A stretch of DNA of 64,000 bases from Isurus oxyrinchus (GCA_026770705.1 JANJGN010000016.1:28148001-28212000); one strand, 5' to 3'; positions 17,001 through 56,200 are shown, numbered from the stretch's first letter. Numbers and translations: made by a program. The notes: generated by a model from the sequence alone, not told the origin.

Positions 17001-20000
17001 CTCTCTCTCTCTTTCTCCAGATATTAATCTCAATCATAGAAATTTCAGCCTTTTGTCAGAACTGCTTCCAAATTGGAAGCTATCTGCTTTAATTCCATCA
17101 CTCTGCCATTTAATCTCTATCTTCAGGTGGTTAACTAATTTTCTCCATTTTATGGACTACTATCCACTTCCTATTAACCTTTGCCTGGAAACATTTTCTA
17201 CCTGTTTCTGCTCATCTGTGTGAAATTTTATTTGTTACAAGATTGCAGAATTTTTACATGCAAGTTATATTCAGTGTTAAACTTGTACCCGGTTTTTAAG
17301 AAAATATGCTAGAAATAGGCCTGCTCACAAAATCCCATTGGGATTATATGATAATTGTACTTGCTTGCAGGCCTTCAAGGAGACTCCAAAAATTTAAGCT
17401 GGAAGTTTGAGTGCATGAACCCCAATTGGCGCACACAATCATAAGCCGGGATTTTCTGGCCCCATCGCGGGGGATATTCGATGGCCCAGCCAAAAGTCCG
17501 TTGACTTTCGGTGGGACGGGATGATCCCAGCTGTGGGCGGGGCCAGAAAATCCTGCCCACAGAATGGATACAGCACAGCCAGCCATTCAACCCATCATGT
17601 CTGTGCTAGTCCCAATTCTCCTTTTACTTACAGCCCCAGATGTGGTCTCACCAAGGCCCTGTACAATTGCAGCAAGCCATCCCTGTTCCTGTACTCAAAT
17701 CCTCCGGCTATGAAGGCCAACATACCATTTGCTGCCTTTACCGCCTGCTGCACCTGCACGCTTATCTTCAGCGACTGGTGTACGAGGACACCCAGGTTTT
17801 GTTGCGTATTCCCCTCTCTCTCAATTTATAGCTATTCAGATAATCTGCCTTTCTGTTTTGCCTGCAAAGTGGATAACCTCACATTTATCCACATTATATT
17901 GCATTTGCCCACTCTCTTTCTCAGCTTATCCAAATCACCCTGAAGCATCTCTGCATCCTGCTCACCCTCCCACCCAGCTTTGTGTCATCTGCAAATTTGG
18001 AGGTATCACGTTTAGCTTCCTCATTTAAATCATTAATATATATTGTGAATAGCTGGGGTCCCAGCACCGATCCCTGCGATACCCCACTAGTCACTGCCTG
18101 CCATTCGGAGAAAGACCCATTTATTCCTACCCTTTGTTTCCTGTCTGCCAACCAGTTTTCTATCCATCTCAACACAATACCTCCAATCCCATGCACTTTA
18201 ACTTTACATGCCAATCTCTTACGTGGGACTTTGTCGAAAGCCTTCTGAAAGTCCAAATAAACCACATCCACTGGCTCCCCCTCATCAACTTTACTTGTTA
18301 CATCCTTGCAAAATTCCAGTAGATTTCTTGAGAATTATTTCCCTTTTTGTAAATCCATGTTGTCTCTGTCCGATTCTGCCACGGTTTTCCAAGTGCTCAG
18401 CTATTAAATCCTTTTGAATGGACTCTAGAATTTTCCCCACTACTGACGTCAAGCTGACTGGTCAATAATTCCCTGTTTACTCTCTACCTCCCTTTTTAAA
18501 TAGTGGGGTTATATTAGCTACCCTCAAATCTGTAGGAACTGTTCCAGAGTCTATAGAGTCTCGGAAGATGATTACCAATGCATCCACTATTTCTAGGGCT
18601 ACTTCCTTAAGTACTCTGGGATGTAGATTATCAGGCCCTGGGGATTTTTCGACCTTCAATCCCATCAATTTCTCCAACACCATTTCCCTACTAATACTGA
18701 TTTCTTTCAGTTCCTCCCTCTCACTAAATCCTATGTTACCCAACATTTCTGGTATGTTATTTGTGTCCTGCTTTGTGAAGTCAGAACTAAAGTATTTTGG
18801 TCAGCCATTTCTTTGTTCCTCATTATAAATTCCCCTGTTTCAGACCTACATTTGTCTTCACCAATCTTTTTTCTCTTCACATAGCTATAGAAACTTTTAC
18901 AGTCTTTTTTTGTTCCCCACAAGCTTGCTCTCGTACTCTATATTTTCCTCTTTCTTAATCAATCCCTTGGTCGTCCTTTGCTGAATTCTAAAGTGCTTCC
19001 AATCTCAGGTCTTTTTTTCTGGCCAATTTGTATGCCTCTTCCTTAGATCTAATACTATCTCCAATTTCCCTTGTAAGCCATGGTTTGGCCACCTTTCCGA
19101 TTTTACTTTTGCGCCAGACAGGAAGAAACCATTGTTGCAGTTCACCCATGCGCTCTTTGAACATTTGCCATTGCCTATCCACCGTCATCCCTTTTAAATA
19201 ACGTTTCCCAATCCATCATAGCCAACTCGTGTCTCATACCATCGTAGTTTTCTTTATTCCTTTATTAAGATTCAGGACCCCTGTCTCAGAATCAACTATG
19301 TCACACTCCATCTTGATGAAGAATATGAAGAATTCTATCATATTATGGTCCCTCATCCCCAAGGGGCCTCGCACAACTAGATTGCCAATTATTCCTTTCT
19401 CATTACACAACACCCAGTCTAGCATGGCCTGTTCCCTAGTTGGTTCCTCAGAAAACCATCTCGAATGCACCCTAGGAATTCCCCCTCCATGGTGTTGTTA
19501 CTAATTTGATTCCCCAATCTTTATGCAGATTAAAGTCACACATAATTACAGATGTTCCTTTATTGCATGCATCTCTAATTTCCTGTCTAATGCCATTCCA
19601 AACATCACCACTACAGTTTGGGGTCTATGTACAACCCCACTAATGTTTTTTGTCCCTTAATGTTTCTCAGCTCTACCCACAGATTCCACATTGTCTGAGC
19701 TAATATATTTCCTCACAATTGCGTTAATTTCCTATTTTTAACCAGCAATGCAATTCCACAACCTTTTTCTTTTTGTATGCCCTTCCTAAATACTGAATAC
19801 CCCTGGATGTTTGGTTCCCATCCCTGGAACATCAATGTCTTGTGTCCCCATGTCACTAATTTCCTTGAAGTTAAATTCAAAACACTAACTTGTATGTGTT
19901 GAAGATCCAATGGGGATTAGACATTATGAATATAGTGCAAATTCTAAGTAATCCATGTACGTTCTGCTTATTTTTCCCAGCAAAGTTTTATACAAAGGAG

Positions 20001-22919
20001 GGGTGGCCTTTTCTGTGACTAATACTGAACCTAAGCAGATATTTGAATGTTTCATTAATTTAATAAACTCTATCTCATTACATTGACACTTTGAACAGAA
20101 TAACTATCATTGCTTCCTGTTTTCTTTCTGTTCAAGACATTTTGCTTGGGTTGATATGTTCTCTTGCTGTCTTTTCATTGTCTTAGGTTTTCTTTGTCTT
20201 GCGGAAGAAAAACAGTCAGATTACCTTCCTTCACATCTTCCATCATTCAATCATGCCTTGGACCTGGTGGTGGGGAGTCAAGTTTGGACCAGGTATGGAG
20301 AGATTCCACCATCCTGTAAACTTGAAGTTATCTGAAACTGTACATGCCCATGTCCGAACTCGCACAAAGTCCTGTTTACTTATTACCTCAGTGCTTGCTG
20401 AGCTACAGTGGTCCCCAGTTGAGCAATACTTGAAGAGTAATTTATATTAAAAAAATTCTCCATGTCCTCTCGGTTCTCATCCTATCTCTAATCTTCTCCA
20501 AACCCACAACTCTCTGATATCTGCACTCCAATTCTGCCCTCCTGAATATCCCTGATTTTCATTGTGCCACCATTGATGGCACCTTCAACTGCCTACACTC
20601 TAAGCTGTGGACATAACGCTCTCTCTCCTCCCTTAAGGCGTTTCTCAATAAAATCTACATCCTTAACCAAGTCAAAAACAGAATTACCTGGAAAAACTCA
20701 GCAGGTCTGGCAGTATCGGCGGAGAAGAAAAGAGTTGACGTTTCGAGTCCTCATGACCCTTCGACAAATCTAGTTCTGTCGAAGGGTCATGAGGACTCGA
20801 AACGTCAACTCTTTTCTTCTCCGTCGATGCTGCCAGACCTGCTGAGTTTTTCCAGGTAATTCTGTTTTTGTTTTGGATTTCCAGCATCTGCAGTTTTTTT
20901 GTTTTTATCCTTAACCAAGTGTTTGGTTATCTACCCTGATATTGTCTATGTTGCCAAATGTTTTATAATACTTCCCTGAAGTGGCTTGGGATGCTTTATT
21001 TTGTTAAAGGTGCTATATAATCTGTTGCTGTATTCGTTTCATTTGGATGAATAACAATATCTGATGCACAGGCTTTGTTCTTGACGGCTGATGCTGTGTT
21101 TCTTTCAGGTGGTATGGGATCCTTCCATGCCATGGTGAACTCTATCGTCCATGTCATCATGTACTTCTATTATGGGCTATCCGCAGCTGGTCCGGCTTTT
21201 CAGAAATATCTCTGGTGGAAAAAGTATATGACAGCAATCCAGTTGGTCAGTGTCACTGTTTTTGTATTTAGATGTTTATGGGAAGGGGTGAGGTGTGGTT
21301 TCCCTTTGTTTACTTTTAGTACAGACCTTTTATTCTGGCATGAGGGAGTAAGAGATGCTTGAGCTTGTAGTGGTTGTTTTTGTTTTAAGACTAGGTAGTG
21401 GAACAGTATAATATCATGGTCTAGTTTAGAGTTCCCACAAAGGGAAATATCCTTTCAGCATCCACCCAGTCAAGTACCTTCAGAATCTTACTCCGACAGA
21501 TACAGGCCCAGCCTGTCCAATCTTTCCTCATAAGATAACTGTCCTCCCGTCCTAGCTATCAGTCGAGTGAACGTTCTCTGAACTGCTAATGCATTTTGTA
21601 AGGAGACCAAAACTGTGTACACATTGCAGATGTGGTCTCATCTCCCTATACAACTTTTAGCAAAACGTTCCTACTTTAAATTCCATTGCCCTTGCAATAA
21701 ACCAACAACATTCTAATTGCCTGCACATTAATCTTTCGTGATTTGGGTACCAGGACACCCAGATCCCTCTCCTGCAGAGTTCTGCAATCTGCCTATTTAA
21801 ATAATGTGCTGCTTTTCTATTCTTCCTGCTAAAATGGACAAGTTCATTTTTATGGCTTTTGGGCATCCAGAAGTACTTTGCAGCCAGTGAACTCAATTTC
21901 GTAGTATAGTCAGTCTTGTAATTAGAGAAAATACCAGCCAATTGGCGCACAAGATGCCATAATCAATGCAATAATGACTAGATAATGTTAGTGACATTGG
22001 ATAGAATCATAGGATGACACAACATAGAGGCAACCATCTGGTGAAGCTATCCAATTAGTCCCATTGACCTATTTTTCCCTCTTTCAAATTTTACTATTGA
22101 AACTGCTTCCACCACCCTTTTCAGTGCATTCTAGAACATAACTTGCTGTCTTTTGTAAGTTTCCTCAAGTTCTTTTTGCCAATCCATAAACTAATGCCCT
22201 CTGGTTACTGAACCATCTGTCCCTGGATATGGTTTCTCCTTCTTTAGTTTTGTCAAAACCATTAATGATTTTGAACACTTCCAGACTGAGGGTAAACATT
22301 GGTCACAATAGTGGGGAGAATGCCCCTGCCATTGAAGTGTCTTGGGATCTTTTTACATCCAGCTGAGAGGCAAGTTTAATATCTCACCTGAGACTGGATG
22401 TACAGGTCAAGCAGGGTAGCAACTTGATTGAATGGCAATGTTAGTGCCAAGACAGTGGTAATCTCGGGGCTAAGATCTGTTGATGTATCTGTACTCCATT
22501 CTTGCCATCATGATTATTTTCGTTGTCCCTTGAGTTGAACTGTTTACAATCCCCTCTTTCTCCTGTGATTTCCTCTGAATGGAGGTGCAGTACCTGTTGG
22601 CATTGATTTTTTTTTTAACGTTTCTATTTTACAGGTCCAGTTTGTTGTTGTTTCACTACATGTCACCCAGTACTACTTCATGGATCACTGTGATTACCAG
22701 TTCCCCATCTTCATCCATCTCGTGTGGATGTATGGAACATTCTTTTTTGTCCTTTTCTCCAACTTCTGGTACCAGGCCTACACAAAGGGCAGGAGGCTGC
22801 CCAAAGGCAGAGAAGGAAAGCAGAAAGCAGCCATGAAGAATGGAAAGCCGGCAGCAGAGAATGGCGGGCACTTGCTGGAAAATGGGGAGGTGATGAATGG
22901 AAAAGTGAAGACAAATTAA
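5759..22919 (+). CDS. ELOVL1: Elongation of very long chain fatty acids protein 1, complete spliced CDS (304 aa)
   Basis: join(5759..5816,6667..6857,9937..10017,16891..16947,20187..20292,21109..21245,22635..22919). All introns GT-AG, phases consistent, 915 nt. Has ELO motifs KxxExx[24 protein letters not shown] and C-terminal KVKTN ER-retrieval signal. Best matches ELOVL1 ([22 protein letters not shown]) and is syntenic with MED8/SZT2. Confidence 0.95.
6667..6857 (+). CDS. ELOVL1: ELOVL1 coding exon 2
   Basis: ctgcag|ATCCAAGG...TATGAG|gtatgc; PRIEEYPLM...YIVYE. Confidence 0.95.
8285..9430 (-). mobile_element. CR1-type LINE fragment
   Basis: Reverse-complement CR1 3'UTR and RT remnants (FADD, DFQKAF). 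Confidence 0.75.
9937..10017 (+). CDS. ELOVL1: ELOVL1 coding exon 3
   Basis: tcacag|[27 protein letters not shown]|gtaagt. Confidence 0.95.
10607..11015. repeat. Inverted repeat, arms ~10607-10731 and ~10886-11015
   Basis: Arms are reverse complements; ORF track gives [14 protein letters not shown] on both strands. Confidence 0.9.
13383..14024. mobile_element. GC-rich MITE-like element, same family as 829-1545
   Basis: ~30-bp imperfect TIRs gggcagaattttgcccttggcaggcggg / cccgcccaccaagcaaaaaattctgctcc. Confidence 0.75.
16891..16947 (+). CDS. ELOVL1: ELOVL1 coding exon 4
   Basis: ccccag|[19 protein letters not shown]|gtgagt. Confidence 0.95.
16966..17012. repeat. (CT)n microsatellite just downstream of ELOVL1 coding exon 4
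   Basis: Directly visible. Confidence 0.95.
17444..17558. mobile_element. ~115-bp MITE
   Basis: TIRs ggattttctggccc / gggccagaaaatcc. Confidence 0.7.
17559..19850 (-). mobile_element. CR1-type LINE with disrupted ORF2 (endonuclease plus RT)
   Basis: [60 protein letters not shown] in frameshifted pieces. Confidence 0.92.
20187..20292 (+). CDS. ELOVL1: ELOVL1 coding exon 5 (histidine box)
   Basis: tcttag|[36 protein letters not shown]|gtatgg. Confidence 0.95.
20673..20906 (+). mobile_element. Palindromic Penelope-derived insertion with hammerhead-like motif and 14-bp TSD
   Basis: 94-bp arms 20673-20766 / 20777-20870; atccttaaccaagt duplicated at 20659-20672 and 20907-20920; inserted in an older L2-like fragment. 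Confidence 0.85.
20772..20810 (+). ncRNA. Minimal type-I hammerhead-like motif (variant core)
   Basis: agtt-CTGTCGA-a-gggtc-atgag-gactc-GAAA-C-GTC-aact: stem I, stem II and GUC site present; A6>U deviation from CUGANGA. Confidence 0.5.
21109..21245 (+). CDS. ELOVL1: ELOVL1 coding exon 6
   Basis: tttcag|[22 protein letters not shown]...MTAIQL|gtcagt. Confidence 0.95.
22635..22919 (+). CDS. ELOVL1: ELOVL1 last coding exon
   Basis: ttacag|[24 protein letters not shown]...NGKVKTN-TAA. Confidence 0.95.
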
Positions 22920-39300: not shown

Positions 39301-42300
39301 AACCGTTGCAATCCATGTGGTGTTGGAACACCTACCGTGCTGTGAGAGAGTTCCAGGGCTTTGACCCAGTGACAGTGAAGGAATGGTGATATATTTCCAA
39401 GTGAGGATGATGCGTGGCTTGGAGGGGAACTTCCAGGTGATGGCGTTCCCCTGTGCCTGTTGCCCTTGTCCTTCTGGATGGTAGCGGTCGTGGGTTTGGA
39501 TGGTGCTGTCTAATAAGGACCTACAGTGCATCTTACAGATGGTGAAAACTGCTGCCACTGTGCAATGGTAATGGAGGGAGTGAATGTTTGTTTGTGGATG
39601 GGGTGCCAATCAAGAAGGCTGCTTGGTCCTGGATGGTTTCAAGCTTTGCGAGTGTTGTTGGAGCTGCACTCATCCAAGCAAGTGGAGAGTATTCTATCAC
39701 ACTCCTAATCTGTACCTTGTAGAGGTGGACAGGCTTTGGGGAGTCAGGAAGTGAGTTACTCCCTGCAGAATTGCTAGCCTCTGATCTGCTCTTGTAGTCA
39801 CAGCATTTATATGGCTAGTCCAGTTCAGTTTCTGGTCATTGGTAACCCCACGATGTTGATATTGAGGGTTTCAGCAATGGTAGTGCCATTGAATGTCAAG
39901 GATGATGGTTAGATTCTCCCTTGTTGGAGATGGTCATTGCCTGGCACTTGTGTGGCACAAATGTTACTTGTCAGCCCAAGCTTGGACATTGTCCAGGTCT
40001 TGCTGCATTTGGACATGGACTGCTTCAATATCTAAGGAGTCACAAAAGGTGCTGAACATTGTGCAATCATAAGTGAATATCCCCACTTTTGAACTTATGA
40101 TGGAAGGGAGGTCATTGAAGCAGCTGAAGATTCTTGGGCCTAGGACACTCCTAAAGTGATGTCCTGGAACTGAGGTGACTGACTTCCAATAACCACAACT
40201 ATCTTCATTTGTGCTAGGTATGACTCCAATCAGTGGAGAGTTTTCCCCGATTCCCATTGACTCCTTGATGTCAATACTCACTTTCAATGAATTTAACATT
40301 TAACTATCACAAAAGAATTATGGTACAAGGCAACAGGATCTTTCAAGAGTTCAGTTCTAATGGGATTGAAACACTACTGAAATTAATAGGAAGGTCTTGT
40401 GGCACACTGGGTAAATTCACTGCCTGAGCCAGAAGCTGTGGGTTCGAGTCCCACTCCAGAACTTGATGGCCATGGAAGTGTTCATAATGTAGCCAAACAG
40501 GCTGCATATCAGCCTGTAATTTCTTTCAATATGCCTATGGCAGGTGGTAAGAGCCGGAGAGTCTCCTGGTCAGCCATGCTTGATGTGGAGTAGTGCCCCT
40601 CAAGCTATAGCCTCCGGCAACAGGCTAGCAGCCTGTTCCAGGAAAATCTAGTTACTTGGAAACAGATGTAAGCAGATGCTTTGTTGCCTCATGCATCTCT
40701 AGATGTGGGAAGAGAATCAAGATTGCACTTAATAAGCATTTGCCTTCACATTACAACAGGAATTTTGTATATTATAACAAGGAATTATCATGTCTTTCAA
40801 TAAGTTGTGTTATTAGGAGGGTCTACAAGGAAGAACTGGGAGACCAGCTAACTTATCATAATGACTACTGACATTTCTGCGATTCTGCTCAAGCATAGGA
40901 ACATGTGCCAAAGTACTTCACACTGAGGGGGAAATTGGTGGATTTTAAGGAGTTGTTATAGATACATGTATTATAAATTGCTACTCAATGTTTAGCGTAG
41001 TGCCTCTATAAATCATACAGTTGCAAGGAAATAATTAATTTGGTCTACATGAAGTTGGCCTGGCACTTCATATTTCCATCTTTCAAGACTTTATATATAG
41101 TCTTATATAATTTACAAAAAGCACTTTACTGCAATCAGAATGAATTATCTGACCTGGACTGTAAGTGTGCAAGGCCAAAAGCTGAAGAGATAAATATCAA
41201 ATGTGTCGTTTATGGAAGCTATCATCAGGTTGATTGAATGTGAAAACCTACAATGCTAATATTACGCTGCCTGCACGCTCAGTGAATTAATGGTTTACAT
41301 TCTTAACTTTGCTCACATCAGATGGTGACCAGCAAACACTCGCCTAAGCCCTCACCCACACCCCCAACTACCAAACTGAACCAGGTTTAAGGCCAAGGTA
41401 ACGTCTTGAGATCCCAGCAGAATCAAATCTCTCCATTCAAGTTTGAATCTGGATGAGTCATAGTTGCTGCCATGAATACAAATAAGGATAGTTTCACTCT
41501 CACCATTAGTCCAGCTGACTGTCCCATTTTCTAATCTGTTAAATTAAGTGCAGGTGTTGGGCATTAACCAGGTATTTATTTATGTCCCTATAAATAGGAA
41601 CAGACTGACTGGTGATTTGGACTCTGTAAATAAAAGTCTATAAACGCATGTGAAGATGGGCTCCAGTTCTATACTTCACCACCAGGCTTTCTGGAATATA
41701 ATATATTGCTTTATTCTCAGATCGTTTTCCGCTATGCTGTTTTTTAAAAAAAATGGAGGACACAATCCATTCCTGCAAAACAGTTGCTCAGAATTAAAGC
41801 ATCCTGCTCATAAACCCAAGTCATACATGGAATCCAACTGCACCGGGAGCACTCAACTCACTGCAAATATTCTTTGATATTTTGTGGAAGACTACTCAAC
41901 AGCATCTTGGCAGGTAAACATGAAAAATAGTTGGCCATATGACTTTTTGAGTCAGCTCCAGCATTTAGTATGATCATCGCTAATCCATTACCTCAACTCC
42001 ACTTTCCTGAACTACCCCATATCTCTTGATTCTGTTAGTATCCAAAAATTTATTGATCTTCAATGACTGAGCACCAACAAGGGTTAGAGAACTCCAAAGA
42101 TCCATAACGCCCTCAAGTGAAGAAATTTGTTCTCATATCAGTCCCAAATGACTACCCTTATTCTGAGACTGCAATCTCTAGTTTAAGACTTCCCAGCTAG
42201 AGAAAAAAGTGAAGAACTGAGGGTTTGAGAAGTTCCAGGTCACAGTGAACTAATAAAATAGACTCTAGTGCAAGAGCAAAATACTGTGGATGCGGGAAAT

Positions 42301-45300
42301 CTGAAATAGAAGCAGAAAATGCTGGAAAAACTCAGTAGGTCTGGTAGCATTGTTGGCGATAGAAACAGAGGCAATGTTTCTGTTCTAATGGAAGGACATT
42401 ATCTCTTTCTCTCTACACAGATACTACCTGAGCTGCTGCATATTTCCAGCGTTTTCTGTTTCAATATAGTAGCGTGAACTGCATTCATAACCTACCGTCA
42501 ATTCATCATCACGGTCAGGAGAAAGTAGCAGTGGGATGATGACCTGATTTCTTAGGAGTGGTGTTTTATCATTTTTCAGGAGCTTGTTCAAGGTGTTCAG
42601 TTGCCCAGATACCAGGGCAAAGTTATCCAATACTGAGGGCCTGGAAGTGGATGCAACATAGATTAGGCAAGACAGCCACAGCAGACTTTAAGCAGCTGGG
42701 AAAAGGCAGCAATAAAGTACTGTAAGTCCATCAGAATTTGAAGAGCGAAAATTTAGGTTAATGTGTTTGTGTAAACTATTAGTCAGAACTGGAAACTTGA
42801 TGCTGAAGATCCATATAGTAAGGGTGATGGAATAAGTTTTATTGGGCTTAGCCTCAAGCGAAGGCTAACGGACTAAAACATTTCTCTTGATCTCCTTTGG
42901 TACTCTGAAGTAAAATAAACTTGTACCACCCCTTTATAGGACTAAACACAGAGAGACAGAAAGAGAAAAGGTAAGTCAGAAGTCATGTATGCAGACTCTT
43001 GTAGAGAAGCACAAAAAGTGGTTGACTGCTTGAATATGCTAAAAAAGGGGTCAAGCACCTGCTTTGGAGTCCAAATTGTTTACAAGAAAAAACTTGCCTT
43101 TCACGAGCATTGGACATTTCAAAGTGCTTTACAGCCAATGAAGTACTTTTGAAGTGTAGTTACTGTTGTATTACAGGAAACGCAGCAGCTAAGTTGCAGA
43201 CAGCAAGTTCCCGCAAACAGCAATGGAATAATGACCACATAGTCTATTTTTTTTTGTGACGTTGATTGAGGGATAAATATAGGCCAGGACACTGGGAAAA
43301 CTCTCCTTTCCTTCTTCAAAATAATGCCATTGGTCTTTTTTTTACATCTACCCAAGAGGGCAGGTGAGGCTTTGGTTTAACCTCTCATCTGAAAGACACC
43401 CCTCAATACTGCACTGGTGTGTCAGTCTTCATTTTTGTGCTGACATCCTGGATTGGGACTTCTGACCCAGAGACAAGCTTGCTGCCAACAGAGCAATGGC
43501 TGACAGACAATGAACGCCGCAGGTTTTCAGGATTTCGAGGTTGATACATGACCTAATCATAAAGGTTGTAGGCCATCACAGAAAAAGGCAGGTTTTAAGA
43601 AAAAATATGCTTACTTTAATGGGGAGCTAGAAGGAGCAGGCCACTACTTGCCCAGCTTCCAGACTCTCCTCAGGTGGACACTGATCGATTTTGGTGGCCT
43701 GTGCAACTGGCGAGCTGTGTGTGAGGTGGCAACTTGCCTGTATTAAAAACAATAAGGCCTGAAAGCCAATGTGTCCGGGCTTTACCACCGGTCTTTTTGG
43801 GTTTTATTCAATTTTTAGATCAACATATTTGATAAAGTTTCCTAAATTTCTCTAATAAGTGCCACGAGAGCAAGTGTGGTTTGGTTTAGGTGCTGGATAA
43901 AATGCCTTTATTGAACCCCAACAAAAAGCTATAACCTCAATCTCTGAGGACCCTGAATGCACTAGTTCAACAATTCTGTTTCTCTCACCAACCACCCTAG
44001 AACTTCAATCAGATCACCAATTTGGGGAAACTGTGTTAAGTTTTGTAACGTGAAGTTAATAGGAACAAGGATGAGATAGCATTATGCTCATTTTACTTCA
44101 GGTGATAATAGACTCTTTGTCCGTCATCTTGAGCTGGACTCCAATCCAGACGCTACAAGTGAAAGATTTGGAATTTACATATTTCAACAAAAAAAATGAT
44201 AAACGTGCTATAGTTTATTCTTATGATAGATTGTGAAAAGCAATTTAAATTAATTAAAGACACATGACAAAAATTTAGATTGAAGTAACCGACGCAATGC
44301 CACTGAAAGAGAAATGCACTGTATTCAGAAATCTTTACATTTAAGTAGTTTTGTCACTAATAGATGTGTACCCAATGTCCCAAGTTGAGGTGTGTGCAAG
44401 TCCAGCAGTAACATGCTGGGGTTGAAATTCCTTTGTGGCATTTTGGTATAGCAGTGAATATAATTTGTATCAACTCGTGTGCAATGCGTTTCCTTAAAGT
44501 TAACCCACTGAGGAATATTAACCTCAGTAAATAGCAGTGCTTTATCCTCTTTCTGCCAGCCAATGGCTGCAATATGCTAAGTGTGCTGAGTGTAAAACTT
44601 ATACATGCAATTTCAGCAGTAACTCCACCACCATCAGTCGTCAATACACTTCCCATACATCCTTACATACAGACAAATTCGAGGAGATATGTGAGATCAA
44701 CAGCACAGGTAATTGCACAGCATTGTACAGACAGAAGAAAGTATTTTTTGTCCCAAGAGGGACACCTTACCAGTTCATTCGTTCAAATTCATTCTCTAAC
44801 TTGAAGATGAAAGCTGCCAAAGAACTTTTCAGGTCAGCTACCCGGCTGATAATGGCGTCCACAGATGCCTCCAACTGCTTTTCTTCTTGTGGCTATGGAA
44901 AGTTACCAGTGAACTTTAAAAAGATACAGCATTTTTACAAAACGATATAATCTGAACAGCACTTCCTCTAGTTATACTGATGACTGTCAAGGAATCTGTA
45001 GGAAGTGTGCTCAAAGCTTGAAATTCCGACCATCTGATTAATGAAAAATCTTAAGTGAAGGCTGCTCAGGAAATAGAAAGGAGAAGGCACATTTTAATTT
45101 TTTTTTTGCCAAATTCCTTCTCTTCCTCTCCTGAAAAGGTTAGCTCATTCTTGGATGTGATTCCATAGGTGTTGCCTGCCTTGATGCATTTTATACGAAT
45201 ACCCCTGCTTCACTTACGAAGGTTTGGTCAGTAAACGCTGGCAAGCTTTTTGACATGGGGGCACCAAGTGGTTTAATCTATAACCACACGTGCACCTACC

Positions 45301-48300
45301 ACCACGGGTTACTGGATAGTGATAAGAATTGGGTACCATGGCACTGATTCTCTCTCTCAGCCCATGAGTATTAGGACCAATTATGATGACCACCAACTTG
45401 GTTAACTCAGAACAAAACCAGAATTAAACTGAAGAAGGGTCATATGGACACGAAACGTTAATTCAGATGCTGCTAGACCTGCTGAGTTTTTCCAGCATTT
45501 TCTGTTTTTGTATCTAAGAGCTCAGATGCAACACTTCATTCCTTACTGACAGTTCCAGAATCATTCCAAGCCAATGCCATCCGATGGTTTTCCATATTAG
45601 CTAATGGCCTTGTATTTTTGATGCTGTTCACTATCATATACACTACTTCCTTTAAATGTGCCCAACACAACTGATTATACTTTGTTACTCTCTCAATAAC
45701 TTTAATAGTTCGTGGCCCACAAGGAATCCAAACCCAGGTAAACTTCATTGATTCCTGATATGGTTTCTAAAGATAGTGCTATACCGTGAGGTTCATTTCA
45801 CTGCCACACTCATTGGAAAAAAACACTTCAAATCTCTCAAAATATAACCCACTGGAGGGAATTATTTCCTTTATATATCATTAATAATAATAACTTTGTT
45901 GATACTCCTCTGTCAAGCCTCGGAAAATCAATGAGATAGATGTTTTTGTTTAAAAAATGTGAAACTTGATGCATTTAACACATACAAAGAAACAACGTTA
46001 TATTGAAATGGATCAATTTCACAGTTTCTGATAAGGAGACTCATTCCTGACAACCCCTGATGTTTACTAACATCTCACACTTTTACACTTAAAACACATT
46101 TAACATGATTTGTAAAGTCTGTGTCAGCTGCGGCTCAGTGGTAGCACTCTTGCTTTTGAATCAGAAAGTGATTAATTCAAGTCCCATTCCAGACATGTGA
46201 GCACAAAATCCAGGATGACATTCCAATACAGTACTGAGGGAGGGCCACACTAATGGAGGCGGTGGCTTTCAGATGAGACTTTAAAGCAATACCTTGTCTA
46301 GGCTACTGGGTGGGTGTAAAAGATTCCATTGAAAAAATAGCAGAGGGGCTATCCCCGGTATCCTGGCCAATATTTATCCCACAGCCAACACCAGCAAACA
46401 GATATTTTGATCATTATCACATTGCTGTATGCTGTGCACAAATTGGCTGCATCATTTCCTATATTAGATTAGGGGCTGCACTTCATTTCTGATTTTCAGT
46501 ATCTGCAGTATTTTTGCTATAAATTGCTGGAGAAGAGCTATGGGGCAACCTGAGGGAGTGAAAAGGTGCTGCACAAATGCAAGTGCTTCTTCCCTTTACA
46601 AAACGAGACTTGCATTTATATAGCCACCCTTCCCACTCTCTCAGGACCTTCCGGAGCACCTTTATGAATATTTATGTCAAAAATGCTGGAAATAAAGAGA
46701 GGAAATGAAGTGAAGTAGTCACTGTTGCGAAGTAGAAAAGGCAGCAGCCAATTTACGCTATGCAAGATCCCACCACTTCGATAATGACTGAAAGATCTCT
46801 GAGTTGCAGGAATATGGACTGTAAACACCAGTGAAAGTGATTTCCCCCCCTTCCTCCAGTTAAAGGCCAAGTACACTGAGTGGGTGGTTTAACATTAACC
46901 CAATGTGGTTGATTCGAATCTGCCCTCTGCAATGCCTAGCAAGCCATTCAGTATAAGGGCAATTAAGGATGGGAAACAAATGCTGGCCAGTGATACCCAA
47001 ATCCCATGAAAGAATAAAGAAAAAAAAGGCCCGGGATATGCTCCTTCTCCTCTCTCTCTCCCTCGCTCTGTACCCCTCCGTCTTTCTCTCTCTCGCTCTG
47101 TCCCCCTCCGTCTCTCTCTCCCTTGCTCTGTCCCCCTCCGTCTTTCTCTCCCTCGCTCTGTCCCCCTCCGTCTTTCTCTCCCTCGCTCTGTCCCCCTGTC
47201 TTTCTCTCCCTCGCTCTGTCCCCCTCTGTCTTTCTCTCCCTCGCTCTGTCCCCATGTCCTCCCTCTTGATCTGCCGCACCCATCTTCCATTCTCCCTGTC
47301 TCTTTCTCACTCCCCGTATGTCTCTTTCTCACTCCCCGTCCGTCTCTTTCTCAGTCCCTGTCCGTCCGCTCTTTCTCAGTCCCCGTCCGTCTGTCTCTTT
47401 CTCAGTCCCCGTCCGTCCGTCTCTTTCTCGGTTCCTGTCCGTCCGTCCGTCTCTTTCTCGGTTCCTGTCCGTCCGTCTCTTTCTCACTCCCTGTCCGTCC
47501 GTCTCTTTCTCACTCCCTGTCCGTCCGTCTGTCTCTTTCTCACTCCCTGTCTGTCCGTCCGTCTCTTTCTCACTCCCTGTCCGTCCGTCCGTCTCTTTCT
47601 CACTCCCTGTCCGTCCGTCTCTTTCTCACTCCCTGTCCGTCCGTCCGTCTTTCTCACTCCCTGTCCGTCCATCCGTCTCTTTCTCACTCCCTGTCCGTCC
47701 GTCTCTTTCTCACTCCCTGTCCGTCCGTCCGTCTCTTTCTCACTCCCTGTCCGTCCGTCCCTTTCTCACTCCCTGTCCATCCGTCCGTCTCTTTCTCACT
47801 CCCTGTCCGTCCGTCTCTTTCTCACTCCCTGTCCGTCCGTCCGTCTCTTTCTCACTCCCTGTCCGTCCGTCCGTCTCTTTCTCACTCCCTGTCCGTCTCT
47901 TTCTCACTCCTTGTCCGTCCGTCCGTCTCTTTCTCACTCCCTGTCCGTCCGTCCGTCTCTTTCTCACTCCCTGTCCGTCCGTCCGTCTCTTTCTCACTCC
48001 GTCTGTCGGTCTCATTCTCACTCCATCTGTCCGTCGGTCTCTTTCTCACTCCCTGCCTGTCCATCTCTTTCACACACCCTTGTTTGTCCGTCCCGTCTCT
48101 TTCTCACTCCCTTGTTCGTCTGTCCGTCCGTCCCCTTCTCAAGTCCCTGTCTGTCCGTCTCTTTCTCAGTCTGCCTGGCTGCAGCTTTCCCAGTCCCTGT
48201 CTGTCTGCCTGTCTCTTTTTCAGTCCCAGTCCCTATCTGCCTGTCTCTTTCTCAGTCCCTGTCTTTCAGTCCATCTGCCTCTTTCTCAGTCCCTGTCTGC

Positions 48301-51300
48301 CTGTCTCAGTCCAGGCAGGGACAGGGACTGAGAAAGAGATGGACAGGCAGGGACAGGACTGAGAAAGAGACGGACAGGCAGGGACAGAGACTGAGAAAGA
48401 GACGGACAGGCAGGGAGAATGGAAGACGGGTGGGGCAGATCAAGAGGGAGGACGGGAAGAACACGGGGACAGAGCGAGGGAGAGAGAGAGGAGAAGGAGC
48501 CTTTCCCAGGGCTTTTTTTTCTTTATTCTTTCATGGGATTTGGGTATCACTGGCCAGCATTTGTTTCCCATCCTTAATTGCCCTTATACTGAATGGCTTG
48601 CTAGGCATTGCAGAGGGCAGATTCGAATCAACCACACTGGGTTAATGTTAAACCACCCACTCAGTGTACTTGGCCTTTATCTGGAGGGAGGGAGGGGGAA
48701 AGCACTTTCACTAGTGTTTATAGTCCATATTCCTGCAACTCAGAGATTTTTCAGTCATTATCGAAGTGGTGGGATCTTGCACTGCGCAAACTGGCTGCTG
48801 CCTTTTCTACTTCGCAACAGTGACTACTTCACTTCATTTCCTCTCTTTATTTCCAGCATTTTTGACATAAATATTCATTAAGGTGCTCCGGAAGGTCCTG
48901 AGAGAGTGGGAAGGGTGGCTATATAAATGCAAGTCTCGTTTTGTAAAGGGAAGAAGCACTTGCATTTGTGCAGCACCTTTTCACTCCCTCAGGTTGCCCC
49001 ATAGCTCTTCTCCAGCAATTTATGGCAAAAGCAAAAATACTGCAGATGCTGAAAATCTGTCTCTCACTCCCTGTTCCTGCCTGTCCGTCTCTTTCTCACT
49101 CCCTTGTTCGTCTGTCCGTCTCTTTCTCACTTCCTGCCTGTCCGTCCGTCTGTCTCTTTCTCACTCCCTTGTTCGTCTGTCCGTCTGTCTCTTTCTCACT
49201 CCCTTGTTCATCTGTCCGTCTGTCTCTTTCTCACTCCCTTGTTCGTCCATCCGTCTCTTTCTCACTCCCTTGTTCGTCTGTCCGTCTCTTTCTCACTTCC
49301 TGCCTGTCCGTCTCTTTTTCACTCCCTTGTTCGTCTGTCCGTCTCTTTCTCACTTCCTGCCTGTCCGTCTCTTTCTCACTCCCTTGTTTGTCCGTCCGTC
49401 TGTCTCTTTCTCACTCCCTTGATTGTCCGTCCGTCTGTCTCTTTCTCACTCCCCTGTTCGTCCGTCCGTCTCTTTCTCACTCCCTTGTTCGTCTGTCCGT
49501 CTCTTTCTCACTTCCTGCCTGTCCGTCTCTTTCTCACTCTCTTGATCGTCCGTCCGTCCGTCTCTTTCTCACTCCCTTGTTCGTCCGTCCGTCTGTCTCT
49601 TTCTCACTCCCCTGTTCGTCTGTCCGTCTCTTTCTCACTTCCTGCCTGTCCGTCTCTTTCTCACTCTCTTGATCGTCCGTCCGTCCGTCTCTTTCTCACT
49701 CCCTTGTTCGTCCGTCCGTCTCTTTCTCACTCCCTTGTTCCGTCTGTCCGTCTCTTTCTCACTTCCTGCCTGTCCGTCTCTTTCTCACTCCCTTGTTCGT
49801 CCGTCCGTCCGTCTCTTTCTCACTCCCTTGATCGTCCGTCCGTCTCTTTCTCACTCCCTTGTTCGTCCGTCCGTCCGTCTCTTTCTCACTCCCTTGTTCG
49901 TCCGTCCGTCCGTCTCTTTCTCACTCCCTTGTTCGTCCGTCCGTCCGTCTCTTTCTCACTCCCTTGTTCGTCCGCCTGCCCGTCTCTTTCTCACTCCCTT
50001 GTTCGTCCGCCCGCCCGTCTCTTTCTCACTCCCTTGTTCGTCCGTCCGCCCGTCTTTCTCACTCCCTTGATCGTCCGTCCGTCCGTCTCTTTCTCGCTCC
50101 CTTGTTCGTCCGTCCGGCCGTCTCTTTCTCACTCCCTTGTTCGCCCGTCCGTCCGTCTCTTTCTCGCTCCCTTGTTCGTCCGTCCGCCCGTCTCTTTCTC
50201 ACTCCCTTGTTCGTCCGCCCGCCCGTCTCTTTCTCACTCCCTTGTTCGTCCGTCCGCCCGTCTCTTTCTCACTCCCTTGTTCGTCCGCCCGCCCGTCTCT
50301 TTCTCACTCCCTTGTTCGTCCGTCCGCCCGTCTCTTTCTCACTCCCTTGTTCGTCCGTCCGCCCGTCTCTTTCTCACTCCCTTGTTCGTCCGTCCGCCCG
50401 TCTCTTTCTCACTCCCTTGTTCGTCCGTCCGTCCGCCCGTCTCTTTCTCACTCCCTTGTTCGTCCGTCCGCCCGTCTCTTTCTCACTCCCTTGTTCGTCC
50501 GTCCGTCCCTTTCTCACTCCCTTGTTCGTCCGTCCGTCCGTCTCTTTCTCACTCCCTTGTTCGTCCGTCCGTCTCTTTCTCACTCCCTTGTTCGTCCGTC
50601 CGTCTCTTTCTCACTCCCTTGTTCGTCCGTCCGTCCGTCTCTTTCTCACTCCCTTGTTCGTCCGTCCGCCCGTCTCTTTCTCACTCCCTTGTTCGTCCGT
50701 CCGCCCGTCTCTTTCTCACTCCCTTGTTCGTCCGCCCGCCCGTCTCTTTCTCACTCCCTTGTTCGTCCGCCCGCCCGTCTCTTTCTCACTCCCTTGTTCG
50801 CCCGCCCGCCCGTCTCTTTCTCACTCCCTTGTTCGCCCGTCCGCCCGTCTCTTTCTCACTCCCTTGTTCGTCCGTCCGCCCGTCTCTTTCTCACTCCCTT
50901 GTTCGTCCGTCCGCCCGTCTCTTTCTCACTCCCTTGTTCGTCCGTCCATCTCTTTCTCACTCCCTTGTTCGTCCGTCCGTCTCTTTCTCACTCCCTTGTT
51001 CGTCCGTCCGTCCGTCTCTTTCTCACTCCCTTGTTCGTCCGTCCGTCCGTCTCTTTCTCACTCCCTTGTTCGTCCGTCCGTCCGTCTCTTTCTCACTCCC
51101 TTGTTCGTCCGTCTCTTTCTCACTCCCTTGTTCGTCCGTCCGTCCGTCTCTTTCTCACTCCCTTGTTCGTCCGTCCATCCGTCTCTTTCTCACTCCCTTG
51201 TTCGTCCGTCCGTCTGTCTCTTTCTCACTCCCTTGTTCGTCCGTCCGTCCGTCTCTTGCTCACTCCCTTGTTCGTCCGTCCGTCTCTTTCTCACTCCCTT

Positions 51301-53076
51301 GTTCGTCCGTCCGTCTCTTTCTCACTCCCTTGTTCGTCCGCCTCTTTCTCACTCCCTTGTTTATCCGTCCGTCTGTCTCTTTCTCCAGCTCCATCCCTTG
51401 CTCAGACTGTCTCCGCCCCGTTCTCTGTTGCTTTCTCCATCCCCGCCCTCCTCTGCATCCCTTTCTCTGCCCCCCGCCCCCCCTCCATTGCTTTCTCCGT
51501 CCCCGCCCTCCTCTCTGTCCCTTTCTCCTTCCCCGCCTCCCTCTCTGTCACTTTCTCCGTCCCCGCCTCCCTCTCTGTCACTTTCTCCGTCCCCGACCCC
51601 TCTCCGTCCCTTTCTCCGTCCCCGCCCCCCTCTCTGTCGCTTTCTCTGTCCCCGTTTCTCTCTTTATCCGTTCCCACCCCCCGTCTCTCTTTCTCTGTTC
51701 CCGCCCCCCTCTCTGTCGCTTTCTCCGTCCCCGTCTCTTTCCGTTCCCGTCTCTCTCTTTTTCTGTTCCCGTCCCCCCGTCTCTCTCTTTCTCTGTTCCC
51801 GTCCCCCCGTCTCTCTCTTTCTCTGTTCCCGTCCCCCCGTCTCTCTCTTTCTCTGTTCCCGTCCCCCCGTCTCTCTCTTTCTCTGTTCCCGTCCCCCCGT
51901 CTCTCTCTTTCTCTGTTCCCGTCCCCCCGTCTCTCTCTTTCTCTGTTCCCGTCCCCCCGTCTCTCTCTTTCTCTGTTCCCGTCCCCCCGTCTCTCTCTTT
52001 CTCCGTTCCCGTCCCCCCGTCTCTCTCTTTCTCCGTTCCCGTCCCCCCCTCTCTCTCTTTCTCCGTTCCCGTCTCTCTCTTTCTCCGTTCCCGTCCCCCC
52101 GTCTCTCTCTTTCTCCGTTCCCGTCCCCCCCTCTCTCTTTCTCCGTTCCCGTCCCCCCGTCTCTCTCTTTCTCCGTTCCCGTCCCCCCCGTCTCTCTCTT
52201 TCTCCGTTCCCGTCCCCCCCGTCTCTCTCTTTCTCCGTTCCCGTCCCCCCCGTCTCTCTTTCTCCGTTCCCGTCCCCCCGTCTCTCTCTTTCTCCGTTCC
52301 CGTCCCCCCGTCTCTCTCTTTCTCCGTTCCCGTCCCCCCGTCTCTCTCTTTCTCCGTTCCCGTCCCCCCGTCTCTCTCTTTCTTTGTTCCCGTCCCCCCG
52401 TCTCTCTCTTTCTCTGTTCCCGTCCCCCCCTCCCTCTCTTTCTCCGTTCCCGTCCCCCCGTCTCTCTCTTTCTTTGTTCCCGTCCCCCTGTCTCTCTCTT
52501 TCTCTGTTCCCGTCCCCCCGTCTCTCTCTTTCTCCGTTCCCGTCCCCCCGTCTCTCTCTTTCTCCGTTCCCGTCCCCCCGTCTCTCTCTTTCTTTGTTCC
52601 CGTCCCCCCGTCTCTCTCTTTCTCTGTTCCCGTCCCCCCCTCCCTCTCTTTCTCCGTTCCCGTCCCCCCGTCTCTCTCTTTCTTTGTTCCCGTCCCCTGT
52701 CTCTCTCTTTCTCTGTTCCCGTCCCCCCGTCTCTCTCTTTCTCCGTTCCCGTCCCCCCGTCTCTCTCTTTCTCCGTTCCCGTCCCCCGTCTCTCTCTTTC
52801 TCTGTTCCCGTCCCCCCCTCCCTCTCTTTCTCCGTCCCTGTCTGTCTGTCTCTTTCATTGTCCCTGTCACTGACTGACAGACAGACACAGGGACTGAGAA
52901 AGAGGCAGACAGAGGGACAGGGACTGAGAAAGACAGACACGGACAGACTGTCTCTTTCTCAGTCACCGTCTCTTTCCCGGTGTCTGTCCCCGTCCATCTC
53001 AGTCCCGGCCCGTCTGTCCCGGCCCGTCTGTCCGTTTGTCGGTCTGACTCTGGGCTCTCCAGCTCCTTACCTGCAT
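30267..53076 (-). CDS. MED8: Mediator of RNA polymerase II transcription subunit 8, complete spliced CDS (270 aa)
   Basis: complement(join(30267..30331,33809..34054,35847..35934,38509..38649,42496..42640,44771..44892,53071..53076)), 813 nt, GT-AG introns. Peptide [15 protein letters not shown]...[20 protein letters not shown]...[31 protein letters not shown]...[14 protein letters not shown] matches MED8. Confidence 0.96.
30690..33050. mobile_element. Nested cluster: MITE split by a LINE (30872-31478 plus 32598-32750), itself split by a CR1 (31480-32597, minus)
   Basis: Outer LINE resumes collinearly across the CR1 when compared with the uninterrupted copy at 39781-39960; CR1 peptide [19 protein letters not shown]. 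Confidence 0.75.
33809..34054 (-). CDS. MED8: MED8 exon 6
   Basis: tcttag|[29 protein letters not shown]...QQGQP G|gtaagt. Confidence 0.95.
34395..34600 (-). mobile_element. Ancient tRNA-derived SINE, AmnSINE2-like
   Basis: Minus strand tactgagcctatagaccaggaaggtctc...ggagggtaaaatgaactagtgttcatttcctgat resembles recalled AmnSINE2 consensus; related decayed pieces ~6215-6400, ~45280-45420, ~55950-56075. Confidence 0.5.
35195..35820 (-). mobile_element. CR1 endonuclease-region fragment
   Basis: [26 protein letters not shown]; ILDLVL. Confidence 0.85.
35847..35934 (-). CDS. MED8: MED8 exon 5
   Basis: ctgcag|[30 protein letters not shown]|gtacac. Confidence 0.92.
37330..38097 (-). mobile_element. 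CR1-type LINE 3' fragment
   Basis: [19 protein letters not shown] plus CR1 3'UTR. Confidence 0.8.
38509..38649 (-). CDS. MED8: MED8 exon 4
   Basis: tcgtag|[47 protein letters not shown]|gtatgg (absent from ORF track). Confidence 0.95.
39195..40290 (-). mobile_element. LINE 3' fragment (second family) with A-rich tail
   Basis: [15 protein letters not shown]...[13 protein letters not shown]; T-run at the 3' end ~39195. Confidence 0.8.
40393..40660 (+). mobile_element. tRNA-derived SINE with recognisable Pol III boxes
   Basis: A-box-like tggcacactgg and B box ggttcgagtccc; no full cloverleaf. Confidence 0.6.
42272..42465 (-). mobile_element. Degenerate palindromic Penelope-derived element
   Basis: gctggaaaaactcagtaggtctgg ... 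cctgagctgctgcatatttccagc; ~30 bp from the MED8 exon 3 donor. Confidence 0.7.
42496..42640 (-). CDS. MED8: MED8 exon 3
   Basis: ttccag|[20 protein letters not shown]...SPDRDDELT|gtaggt. Confidence 0.95.
43085..43505 (-). mobile_element. Deu-domain SINE
   Basis: Reverse complement of tcctggcctatatttatccctcaatcaacgtcac...attgctgtttgcgggaacttgctg core. Confidence 0.75.
44771..44892 (-). CDS. MED8: MED8 exon 2
   Basis: ccatag|[42 protein letters not shown]|gtaagg. Confidence 0.93.
45429..45510 (+). mobile_element. Penelope terminal fragment with intact hammerhead core
   Basis: CTGAAGA-a-gggtc-atatg-gacac-GAAACGTT followed by gatgctgctagacctgctgagtttttccagc. Confidence 0.7.
46123..46480 (+). mobile_element. 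tRNA-headed Deu-domain SINE (SacSINE1-like)
   Basis: A box ggctcagtgg, B-box-like ttcaagtccc, Deu core ctttcagatgagac...tcctggccaatatttatccc. Confidence 0.75.
46491..49057. repeat. Large inverted duplication: arms ~46491-47300 and ~48410-49057, minisatellite spacer
   Basis: Arms are near reverse complements; ORF track shows near-identical peptides on opposite strands (46860-47279 vs 48540-48881). Confidence 0.95.
47300..48310. repeat. Pyrimidine-rich minisatellite, 26/30-bp units (tctctttctcactccctgtccg[tccg]n)
   Basis: Directly visible. Confidence 0.95.
49060..51385. repeat. Pyrimidine-rich minisatellite, mostly 31/35-bp units (tctctttctcactcccttgttcg[tccg/cccg]n)
   Basis: Directly visible; unit length varies in 4-bp steps. 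Confidence 0.97.
51410..52840. repeat. Pyrimidine-rich minisatellite, 30-bp unit (ctctctctttctcYgttcccgtccccccgt)
   Basis: Directly visible; near-perfect copies from 51781. Confidence 0.97.
53071..53076 (-). CDS. MED8: MED8 exon 1 coding part (MQ)
   Basis: Minus strand gagATGCAG|gtaagg in CpG island; two-codon first exon as recalled for vertebrate MED8. Confidence 0.85.
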
Positions 53077-53290: not shown

Positions 53291-56200
53291 GTAAAGCGGA
53301 GGCTGCGGGGTGGGGTTCGGGTTAGTGTCTGTGAAGAGTGACAAGGGTCTGAGAGAGAGAGAGAGAGAGCGAGAGGGGTACCTGCTCCTACCCCTGCCCC
53401 CTGGCTCCAGGCACCGACAAGGTCTGGGCACCCTCTCTGGCTAACCTGGCTGCAGCGTTGCTCCTGTCCAACTTTACCGGGCATTTGAACAAGCGTCACT
53501 TTCTCCCTCTGGATTTTGGAGAGGCAAAGTCAAGCGCCCAGCGCATAATTTGTGCCTCTCTTTGAGGCTGAAAATTGCAGTACAGTGTTTGTTTGTAACG
53601 GTGGGGGGTGGGGGGGGGGGGAGGGTGGTGTCCCATTTGTAAACTTCGGGTTTCATCAGCAAACCAACCTTGAAGGGAACCCATGCGACACTCCTTTTTC
53701 TTTTTAAAAAAAAATAATAAATTCCTCCTGTTGTCTTCACGAAGTAAAACAGATAGTCCTGGTAAAACTCAGCCGGTCTGGCAGCATCTGTGCAAAGAGA
53801 AACGGAATTAATGTTTTGAGCCCAATTTGACTCTTCTTCGGTTCCGAAGGGAAGAGTCTTGAAACGTTAATTCAGTTTCCGTCTCCAAAGATGCTGCCAG
53901 ACCAGCTGAGATCTGTTTCTATTTCAGATCTCCAGCATCTGCAGTATTTTGCTTCTATTTTAGTGTCTTCACTATGTACATTGCTGAAAGTTGCTTTCTT
54001 AGGGATGGGCAGTACATGCTGGCCTGGCCATTGATGCTCACACCCCATGAAATAATAAATTAAAAAAATGCCTCCTCAATATTTGTTGGGGCATTCATTC
54101 TTTGTGGATGCTACCTATTGGTACAGACAAAATATGAATTGCTTCCTGTGCAAGCGGAAGGCAGCTGCATGTATCACACTTCAGTAGCTTGAGATTTGCA
54201 TTTTTGGGTTTTATAAACTTTAAGCCTAGTTTATAAAATTCTCCAATCTTCATAATTATGGGGTTTAACTCTAATATCGGATGATTTTTATAGTGAGATA
54301 ACTATATCTAGTATACAGATACTAAGAAGGCTACATCAAAATATACAACTGATTGAAATAGAATAGCTGCAAGAGCAGGAATTAATATCTGTGGTGCAGG
54401 AATTTAGGCTACAAAAATGCTGTATGTAGGCATGCTGGCAAAAATGTAGTGCTTGGGATCAGTGTAATGTTAGGGATATATAGCTGGTGGGTAAGGGCTG
54501 CTTTATGTTTGGAAATTTCTAACTGGATGTTAGAAGTTTAATTTAAATAGAACTCCATTTTCCCATTAATATCACATCTTATGATGGTGAAGTGCTCCCT
54601 GCATCTAACACTGAGATTAACTGTGTCACAGTAGACCTGCAGGATAACAGCTTTGATGCTTTTTGAATATTTCTTGGCTCATGCTGGAGCATGAGACATT
54701 TCACAAAATGATTGTGTTAGGCTAAAGAAAGATGCCTGGTCTAGAATATCAGGAGAAAGAATTTAAGGCAGTAAATTCTGTGTTGGGTTTGAAATGAACT
54801 CTTACTTGTAACCAACAGGGGAATGGCATATGAGAACATAACTGCATTTTGAATGGGAAGTAAACATTATGTTTAATAGTCTCCTTCTTCTAACTGGCGA
54901 TGTGTAACATAGACTTCCCTGGAGACCTTAGTTTACTTAATTTTACTATCATTTAATACAAAGACTAAAGAAAGAAAGCAAACTAAAATGAACGCATAAC
55001 AAGAAAATCATTCAAATCTCATTGCTACAAACTCATGGGGGTCCAAGTACTTAAAGTCTTATTAAGGTATGTTCTCTTATATTACCACTATTAGAGTTTT
55101 TGGTGACCTAAAGGAATTTCTCAAGTTCCAAGGTATTTACTTATATTTTTTGTTTGGCAGGTGGAAGAAGCAGGCCAGGTTTTCCTACTCATGAAGAAGG
55201 AATATCGGATTTCCCGCAATGTGAGATTAGCTTGGTTTCTCAGCAAGCTCAATCAAAGCATTCGACCGATGTCAGAGTCCGAGCTTGTGAGTGAAAGGGT
55301 TGGGGGAATTGTTCTAAGTCCTGTTTCTGAGTGCATGGGTGAAGTAGAGGGCCCTGCTGGAATAATGGGAACCTACCCAGGCATATTAATCTTTGTATGA
55401 AATGTAAATTGCACTCTCTGTACATTGGGAGAAAATAAGATGGTCGTGAATGTTGTTGACACAGATCATTTATTGGTAACACAAGTGGTTTCAGGATATT
55501 TGTTGAAATATGAAAGCAACCTCCCCCACAGGGCCAATGCCACTTGCTTCAATGTTGCACTTTCACAGAGCGCTGACCCTTGTTCTGCTATTAACACATT
55601 CTGCCACTATCATCAACTTCTTTACCCCTTACCACTACCATTAGCACTCCCTTTGTCTTGTCCATGACATCTTCTTTTGTCTCTCCTTAGTTCCCACCTA
55701 TCCCTGACCTTCTATCTTGCTTCACCTGCTCCACCCCTCCTAAACAGTGTAAAATCCATCGCATTTCTACTTCTCTTTAGCTCTGAAGAAGAGGCATATG
55801 TACTCAAAGCATTAACTTGGTTTCTCTCTTCAAAGATGCTGCCAGACCTGCTGAGTTTTCCAGCATTTTATGTTTTTATTTGTTGAAATAGAATGTTTCA
55901 CTTAATTAATTCCATTGTCCTCTTGCCTTTCCAATCAGGAATGTGAATCATCTTACTTTTTTGTCCTTCCCCTGCCCAAGGATACTGAAGTCAATTGTCC
56001 TGCCCCTGAGGTTAACTAATACAATATATATTGTGACCTCCTCAGTCTGCGTGGCTCAGTGTAACACTACAGAGTACTGGGAGCCACTTGTTATGGCATG
56101 GTGAATGGTAAATGCTGAGCTGTTCAAATTCCAGTGGGAAACTTTGAAACAACTGTCAGATCTATTTTACAATTCGCAAAAATTGCTGGAAAAACTCAGC

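Follow-up and report, generated by a model that had tools for sequence, protein, structure and literature searches.

A head-to-head pair of Penelope-like pLTR copies with a variant hammerhead-like motif in an ELOVL-family intron of Isurus oxyrinchus

The insertion and its host intron

The window, the 64,000-nucleotide stretch of Isurus oxyrinchus DNA analysed here (GCA_026770705.1 JANJGN010000016.1:28148001-28212000), contains an ELOVL-family gene with an 817-nt GT-AG intron. The intron is skipped in all four contig sets guessed to be RNA, and the exon that follows it matches Pfam ELO and human ELOVL7; the gene is probably ELOVL1 and not ELOVL7. An initial annotation, made from the sequence alone, had described within this intron a 234-bp insert with a perfect 14-bp target-site duplication (TSD). 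This description holds: the insert spans 20673-20906, and the two flanking repeats are identical at 14 of 14 positions (Table 1).

The insert is built of two inverted arms of 94 bp each (20673-20766 and 20777-20870) around a 10-nt centre (20767-20776). Exactly two pairs between the arms depart from Watson-Crick pairing, 20714 T/20829 G and 20719 G/20824 T, and both are G-U-compatible on the + strand, as had been pointed out. This compatibility is no signal, since the chance that two transitions both give a sense-strand G-U is about 1 in 4. The centre has the length first given for it but is not a separate spacer; it belongs to the right arm as that arm's upstream pLTR sequence, changed by a single substitution (20771). 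The first description of the insert, otherwise accurate, had also missed a 36-nt tail carried by the right arm only. Element positions are counted from the first base of hammerhead stem I (+1, window position 20772). The short arm's hammerhead lacks the 5' strand of stem I and C3, while the tailed arm differs from the intact-ORF copy L034 by three substitutions and a shorter T-run.

Table 1. Features of the insertion and its surroundings (positions in the window)
Feature	Position	Strand	Remarks
Host intron of ELOVL-family gene	20293..21109	+	GT-AG joint in 4/4 contig sets; Pfam ELO on flanking exons
Left TSD	20659..20672	+	14 bp; from the sequence and the family TSD mode of 14-15 bp
Short arm, inverted pLTR copy without tail	20673..20766	-	element positions ~+6 to +99
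Tailed arm, pLTR copy	20766..20906	+	from ~6 nt upstream of +1 through the tail end
Minimal type I hammerhead-like motif	20772..20810	+	core position 6 (20779) is U; cleavage predicted after 20806
One-sided tail, 36 nt	20871..20906	+	spans the gap between the family's two preferred outer ends
Right TSD	20907..20920	+	first 3 bases are the element's continuation (microhomology)

The parent element

The sequence of the insert is the pLTR end of intact elements in the same genome that encode a reverse transcriptase (RT) and a GIY-YIG endonuclease. The Penelope-like origin that had been assigned to the arms is thereby confirmed, as is retro-insertion with a TSD. The parent occurs as tandem 3.35-kb units with open frames of 926 aa (L031) and 925 aa (L034), in which 901 residues are identical; L031 has three pLTR ends at spacings of 3,353 and 3,340 bp, and L032 and L034 are similar. 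The two proteins match RVT_1 with E values of 7e-8 and 1.3e-5 and, C-terminally, GIY-YIG with E 9e-4, scores that for GIY-YIG lie below the Pfam cut-off in both proteins and for RVT_1 in one of the two. YIDD, DKG and VY..YIG motifs are present. The hallmarks of an endonuclease-bearing (EN+) Penelope-like element (PLE) are found together: a single ORF with RT followed by a C-terminal GIY-YIG endonuclease, tandem or partial-tandem units that make pLTRs (L031, L032, L034), an inverted, 5'-truncated pLTR with a one-sided tail of 30-40 nt, seen in the window copy and in 101 of 103 sampled palindromes, and a TSD whose length varies. The parent protein also contains the linker motif CX4CXXC, which points to the Neptune/Nematis type (PMC8557442), and by this motif the parent is probably of Neptune type.

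One array, L031:1207-8002, consists of two near-identical full units, one with the 926-aa open frame; these units are candidates for recently active source elements.

Head-to-head palindromes across the genome

The genome-wide search for copies that the initial annotation had proposed was carried out by counting sequence patterns in the species' own 4.98-Gb genome. A 32-mer taken from the right arm occurs there 61,836 times without a mismatch (control, 0). Head-to-head palindromes, defined by two exact 16-nt anchors, number 1,324 at anchor gaps of 26-55 nt, 2,922 at 56-85, 10,216 at 86-115 and 2,301 at 116-145, or at least 16,763 short palindromes over the range of 26-145 nt; the true number must be higher, as even the copy in the window is mismatched in one anchor.

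From these, 121 palindromes were fetched (15, 31, 50 and 25 per bin), taken as the first matches on contig C1 and not at random. A TSD of 12-16 bp was found in 101 of the 121, against 2 of 60 in a swapped-flank control; with the threshold at 10 bp (range 10-18 bp) the number rises to 108, with a mode of 14-15 bp, and family TSDs are 67% AT. The outer ends follow a strict rule: among the 103 palindromes with a TSD of at least 12 bp, 101 have one arm whose outer end lies near +100 and another whose outer end lies near +137.

The form of the insert is already in print. Insertions of endonuclease-bearing PLEs with head-to-head inverted pLTR, one-sided tail and TSD are described for Pen2a_Av and others in PMC3846280, and a general scheme of inverted pLTR and tail is given in PMC8557442; the tail lies on one arm in both of these, as it does in PMC11167929. 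The Pen2a_Av type is alike in its 30-40-nt tail and in a parent ORF with RT plus, at the C-terminus, GIY-YIG with DKG motif. The window insertion differs in having no ORF part, being one of more than 16,000 stubs, and the rotifer TSDs reported there measure 8-10 bp compared with 14-15 bp in the present family. A literature search on shark Penelope elements returned nothing on this by title or abstract, and supplements, such as the alignments of PMC4209133, may hold U6 or shark motifs; nothing relevant was found on twin priming in Penelope-like elements, and neither outcome implies absence from print.

The window itself holds older relics of the lineage. These are a palindromic insertion at 53732-53978 with an imperfect 15-bp TSD (13/15) and arms 84% identical, and pLTR remnants at 56177-56367 and 42278-42465, both inverted pairs, and at 45434-45513 and 55779-55881. 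An A6 core is kept in the older remnants at 55779 and 56233.

The hammerhead-like motif and core position 6

Homology to a minimal hammerhead had been claimed for the right arm, and stems I and II, the core and the GAAAC-GUC segment indeed lie where they had been placed: stem I at 20772-75/20807-10, CUGUCGA at 20776-82 followed by an extra A at 20783, stem II at 20784-88/20794-98, and GAAAC-GUC at 20799-20806. The GAAA..UH element, the extra base after A9, the G10.1-C11.1 pair, the palindromic 15.2-16.2, both stems and the location in a pLTR are all present. The minimal type I hammerheads of metazoan PLEs (PMC4209133) are alike in pLTR location, a 4-bp stem I, the unpaired base between A9 and G10.1, the G10.1-C11.1 pair, the palindromic 15.2-16.2 and the lack of a loop III. 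The present motif differs from them in its stem II of 5 bp with a G-U pair, in that no two-sided covariation was seen in this genome, and at core position 6, which is U across the young family and A in older subfamilies; the window copy, with U6, departs from the core CUGANGA. Hammerhead families of Rfam were absent among 11 matches to the insert at E up to 10.

The initial annotation had suggested that an A6>U change may inactivate this copy. U6 is not copy-specific; it is common to the whole young family, and every pLTR of L031 and L034, the elements with intact ORFs, carries it. A degenerate motif pattern gave 99,149 matches with U6 and 8,451 with A6 in the same genome, exact patterns undercounting old copies of the motif, and the A6 matches fall mostly in older subfamilies. 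A6 copies also look older than U6 copies by mean nearest-neighbour distance, which is 6.8% for 28 A6 copies against 1.1% in size-matched U6 samples, part of the latter having been chosen by exact match over the motif, which lowers their distance. One locus, L120, has young-family upstream sequence and A at core position 6, and we read it as a natural back-mutant.

Low activity has been reported for changes at position 6 (PMC3088659, for A6C; PMC12192606); an activity test of A6U was not found in our literature search. The behaviour of the stems was followed in 199 copies of one element lineage. Depending on the pair, stem II pairing holds in 49-52 of the 53 A6 copies and in 143-146 of the 146 U6 copies, with a single one-sided change (A-U to G-U at pair 2), and loop II is the most variable part. 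No recurrent two-sided stem change was seen among these copies in this genome. A C-A mismatch in stem I occurs in 15 of 53 A6 copies, a count biased by 30 loci that had been selected for a stem I change. When other hammerheads were sought whose stem I differs, 421 matches resulted (control, 10), and among the 100 matches listed nearly all are decayed members of the same lineage. For two RNAs together, the double-hammerhead fold is predicted at -10.1 kcal/mol and the best dimer fold at -18.2, and eight A6 copies are predicted to show a similar gap.

In a tentative reading, to which we would give somewhat worse than even odds, the young lineage, as the most prolific Penelope lineage of the genome, would have fixed A6>U before it expanded to about 100,000 ends, with the fold kept and set precisely at the RNA 5' end. 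The U6 motif would then serve as a structural 5'-end or protein-binding signal and not as a ribozyme, and one RNA, held by a protein dimer, would be copied twice, once per start site, to yield each palindrome. If true, nature would here have supplied proof that no cleavage is needed in vivo, and the reading would account for the tail and inverted pLTR seen in every element of this kind. Family-wide U6 bears in any case on the function of the pLTR hammerhead.

Inner ends of the arms and the course of insertion

The inner ends of the sampled arms cluster at the start of the motif. They lie within -5 to +5 in 109 of 242 arms (53% when weighted by bin size), and 38 arms were called at +1, or 31 once seven that run into another subfamily's upstream sequence are removed. 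Loose contig ends at 20772, although they look like support for +1, were not counted, because the substitution at 20771 in the window confounds them. Only 5 of the 242 arms end at +34 to +38, around the predicted cut, and no pile-up at the hammerhead cut site was seen among them; two cut RNAs joined would land in the smallest anchor-gap bin. Since the ends lie at +1 and not at the cut site, the templates were apparently not cut by the ribozyme. The arm ends are joined with 0-4 nt of microhomology or with short inserts.

We infer that +1 is probably the transcription start. A TATA-like box stands at -31 in four older copies; against this reading, the box of the young family is imperfect, and +1/+2, preceded by a pyrimidine tract, could equally be the AG of a 3' splice site. 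An extra-G cap signature was not seen, with G before +1 in 7 of 36 arms, three of them explained by microhomology. In D. virilis, an intron ends at the place matching +1 (PMC4209133), and the promoter is TATA-less and 46 nt upstream of that intron (PMC2377424).

The two arms of a palindrome also resemble each other in detail. In 84 of the 121 pairs, 37 having been dropped for short overlap or divergence, variants common to both arms occur at 32 sites, compared with 3.4 in 500 shuffles (maximum 8), and rare variants at 12, compared with 0.22 (maximum 2).

The reading that we favour, with a probability of roughly 0.65, is that an abundant autonomous Penelope-like element inserted its pLTR, with the hammerhead, head-to-head and in minimal form, both nicked strands serving as primers, and that the insert is inert in its intron. 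In this scheme the element protein would cut both target strands about 14 bp apart, and each 3' end would prime reverse transcription on an uncleaved element RNA, close to the 5' end of that RNA, beginning at one of two start sites, at about +100 and about +137. Both cDNAs would be extended until the RNA ends, at about +1, and run off there, and their ends would be joined by end joining that tolerates microhomology.

Much of this scheme has a counterpart in vitro in PAc, a Poseidon element of Anolis carolinensis, as described in PMC11167929. There both target strands are cut and extended at AT-rich targets on an uncleaved RNA template, reverse transcription has two internal start sites, one at either limit of the tail, as here, and an element with a dead hammerhead inserts equally well. 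The two strands are alike in start site in that system, so that the strict short/tail pairing was not reproduced, which counts against the scheme; two-arm palindromic products and inner ends are not described in its main text. The PAc hammerhead overlaps the ORF start and its core is catalytically competent with protein, whereas in the present family the frame opens after the tail and the core is a variant. The strict short/tail pairing, the shared variants and the +1 inner ends yield predictions that can be tested in this existing system.

The variants shared between arms also fit fold-back or gene conversion. In a fold-back origin, one cDNA would run off at +1, snap back and copy itself until joined to the other target end. 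Such self-priming has been proposed for PLE inverted junctions (PMC3846280), and it accounts for rare variants that the arms have in common. In addition, 15 of 242 arms form a junction class that recurs and ends at +10, as expected if a GAA/TTC snap-back left a loop of 4 nt; fold-back may be the origin of that class. As a general account we consider it unlikely, though the strongest of the alternatives. A hairpin loop does not fit into the blunt +1/+1 joins, seen in 2 of 121 palindromes, or into the +1/+5 joins, seen in 5, and the arm that reaches further varies, one leading in 19 pairs and the other in 34, with 34 level (p = 0.053; 87 pairs, 11 having been dropped for not having exactly one tail motif and 23 for long junction inserts). 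Fold-back also leaves unexplained why the outer ends are the two start sites known in vitro, one on each arm, in nearly every palindrome.

The initial annotation had seen in the insert a tiny non-autonomous retro-element. Along this line, the palindrome would be a mini-element or retrozyme without autonomy of its own, moving as one unit by means of hammerhead cleavage. More than 16,000 palindromes of like size, a few recurrent junctions and one identical insert at two loci speak for it, and an origin from pLTRs has been reported for retrozymes (10.64898/2026.07.22.740005). The sequence, though, is the pLTR end of an autonomous element, the window's centre junction occurs once in the genome, and the 121 palindromes contain 108 junction types, so that each palindrome was probably made anew and not copied as a unit. 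The recurrent junction types bear the tail on either side, no tandem array is present, the inner ends avoid the cut site, and the motif has U6 and is predicted to be buried in a hairpin. Spread as a unit is accordingly improbable.

The identical insert deserves separate mention. L095 and L191 lie 124 kb apart and differ in flanks and TSDs, yet the 11-nt insert at their junctions is the same, and their tails are on opposite arms. This occurrence at unrelated sites, which counts against our preferred explanation, would reflect either deterministic templated repair or occasional re-copying. Non-LTR retrozymes proper, which are likewise non-coding, hammerhead-bearing and pLTR-related (10.64898/2026.07.22.740005), are head-to-tail tandem arrays; the window insertion was rejected as one of them, being a single inverted pair with a unique junction, a variant core, at most one complete motif per strand and no head-to-tail units.

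The insert in the host gene

As RNA, the insert is predicted to fold with -186 kcal/mol (z = -26), a stability reached by none of 200 shuffles. In the modelled fold of the whole intron, stem II of the hammerhead has a probability of about 3e-25 and the long hairpin one of 0.99998, and the 94-bp hairpin is thus predicted to bury the hammerhead in the host pre-mRNA. The antisense arm is the first to be transcribed, leaving little kinetic window for the ribozyme fold. The competition between ribozyme and antisense copy that had been imagined for this intron finds no support in these results. U6 is predicted to weaken the hammerhead further and the host intron to be spliced normally; the intron is spliced in the contig sets guessed to be RNA of two organisms.

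Contigs of the second organism, from three studies, also bear on the age of the insert. On the left flank they reach 23 nt into it, and on the right flank they start 17-22 nt within it. Because they enter from both flanks, the insert likely predates the split between the two organisms, whose flanks differ by about 1% in substitutions; no empty-site contig was found among the contig pieces listed for the insertion site. "Young", as the insert had been called, is fair for a copy that differs from L034 about as much as the flanks do and from intact copies by about 1-2%, but probably not in the sense of a recent event after that split.

A near-perfect 94-bp hairpin in a transcribed intron, apparently common to a second organism, might have been co-opted as a regulator of the ELOVL gene, as a ribozyme or hairpin switch, an editing substrate or a source of small RNA. 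We regard this as very improbable. Divergence of the insert like that of its flanks gives no sign of constraint, the intron is spliced in all four contig sets, and thousands of equivalents exist elsewhere. Hairpin-like matches to Rfam miRNA families lie well under the gathering score (best, 56 bits against 135). The data contain no pointer to a host function, and the insert is likely an inert, harmless insertion scar. A DNA-transposon MITE, which the long inverted arms, short length and missing coding capacity might suggest, is refuted by the RT-encoding parent from whose pLTR the arms derive and by TSDs spread over 12-16 bp, together with asymmetric ends and a variable centre in place of symmetric termini, a fixed short TSD and uniform copies; that the insert is no MITE had been anticipated.

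Wider meaning and other features of the window

The single copy in the window is ordinary; what is worth keeping is the family-wide U6 and the statistics of the ends. As a class, the stubs form a large natural record of Penelope integration, and more than 16,000 near-perfect palindromes of 100 bp would be a potentially large load of double-stranded RNA for the host.

Elsewhere in the window, a pyrimidine-rich minisatellite of about 6 kb with periods of 30, 35 and 60 occupies 47047-53033 and accounts for the extreme skew and long open frames there; one such frame has no Pfam match, as is the case for 11 of 14 frames in the window. An intronic stretch at 17600-19600, on which numerous short contigs pile up in each of the four sets guessed to be RNA, is probably another repeat family.
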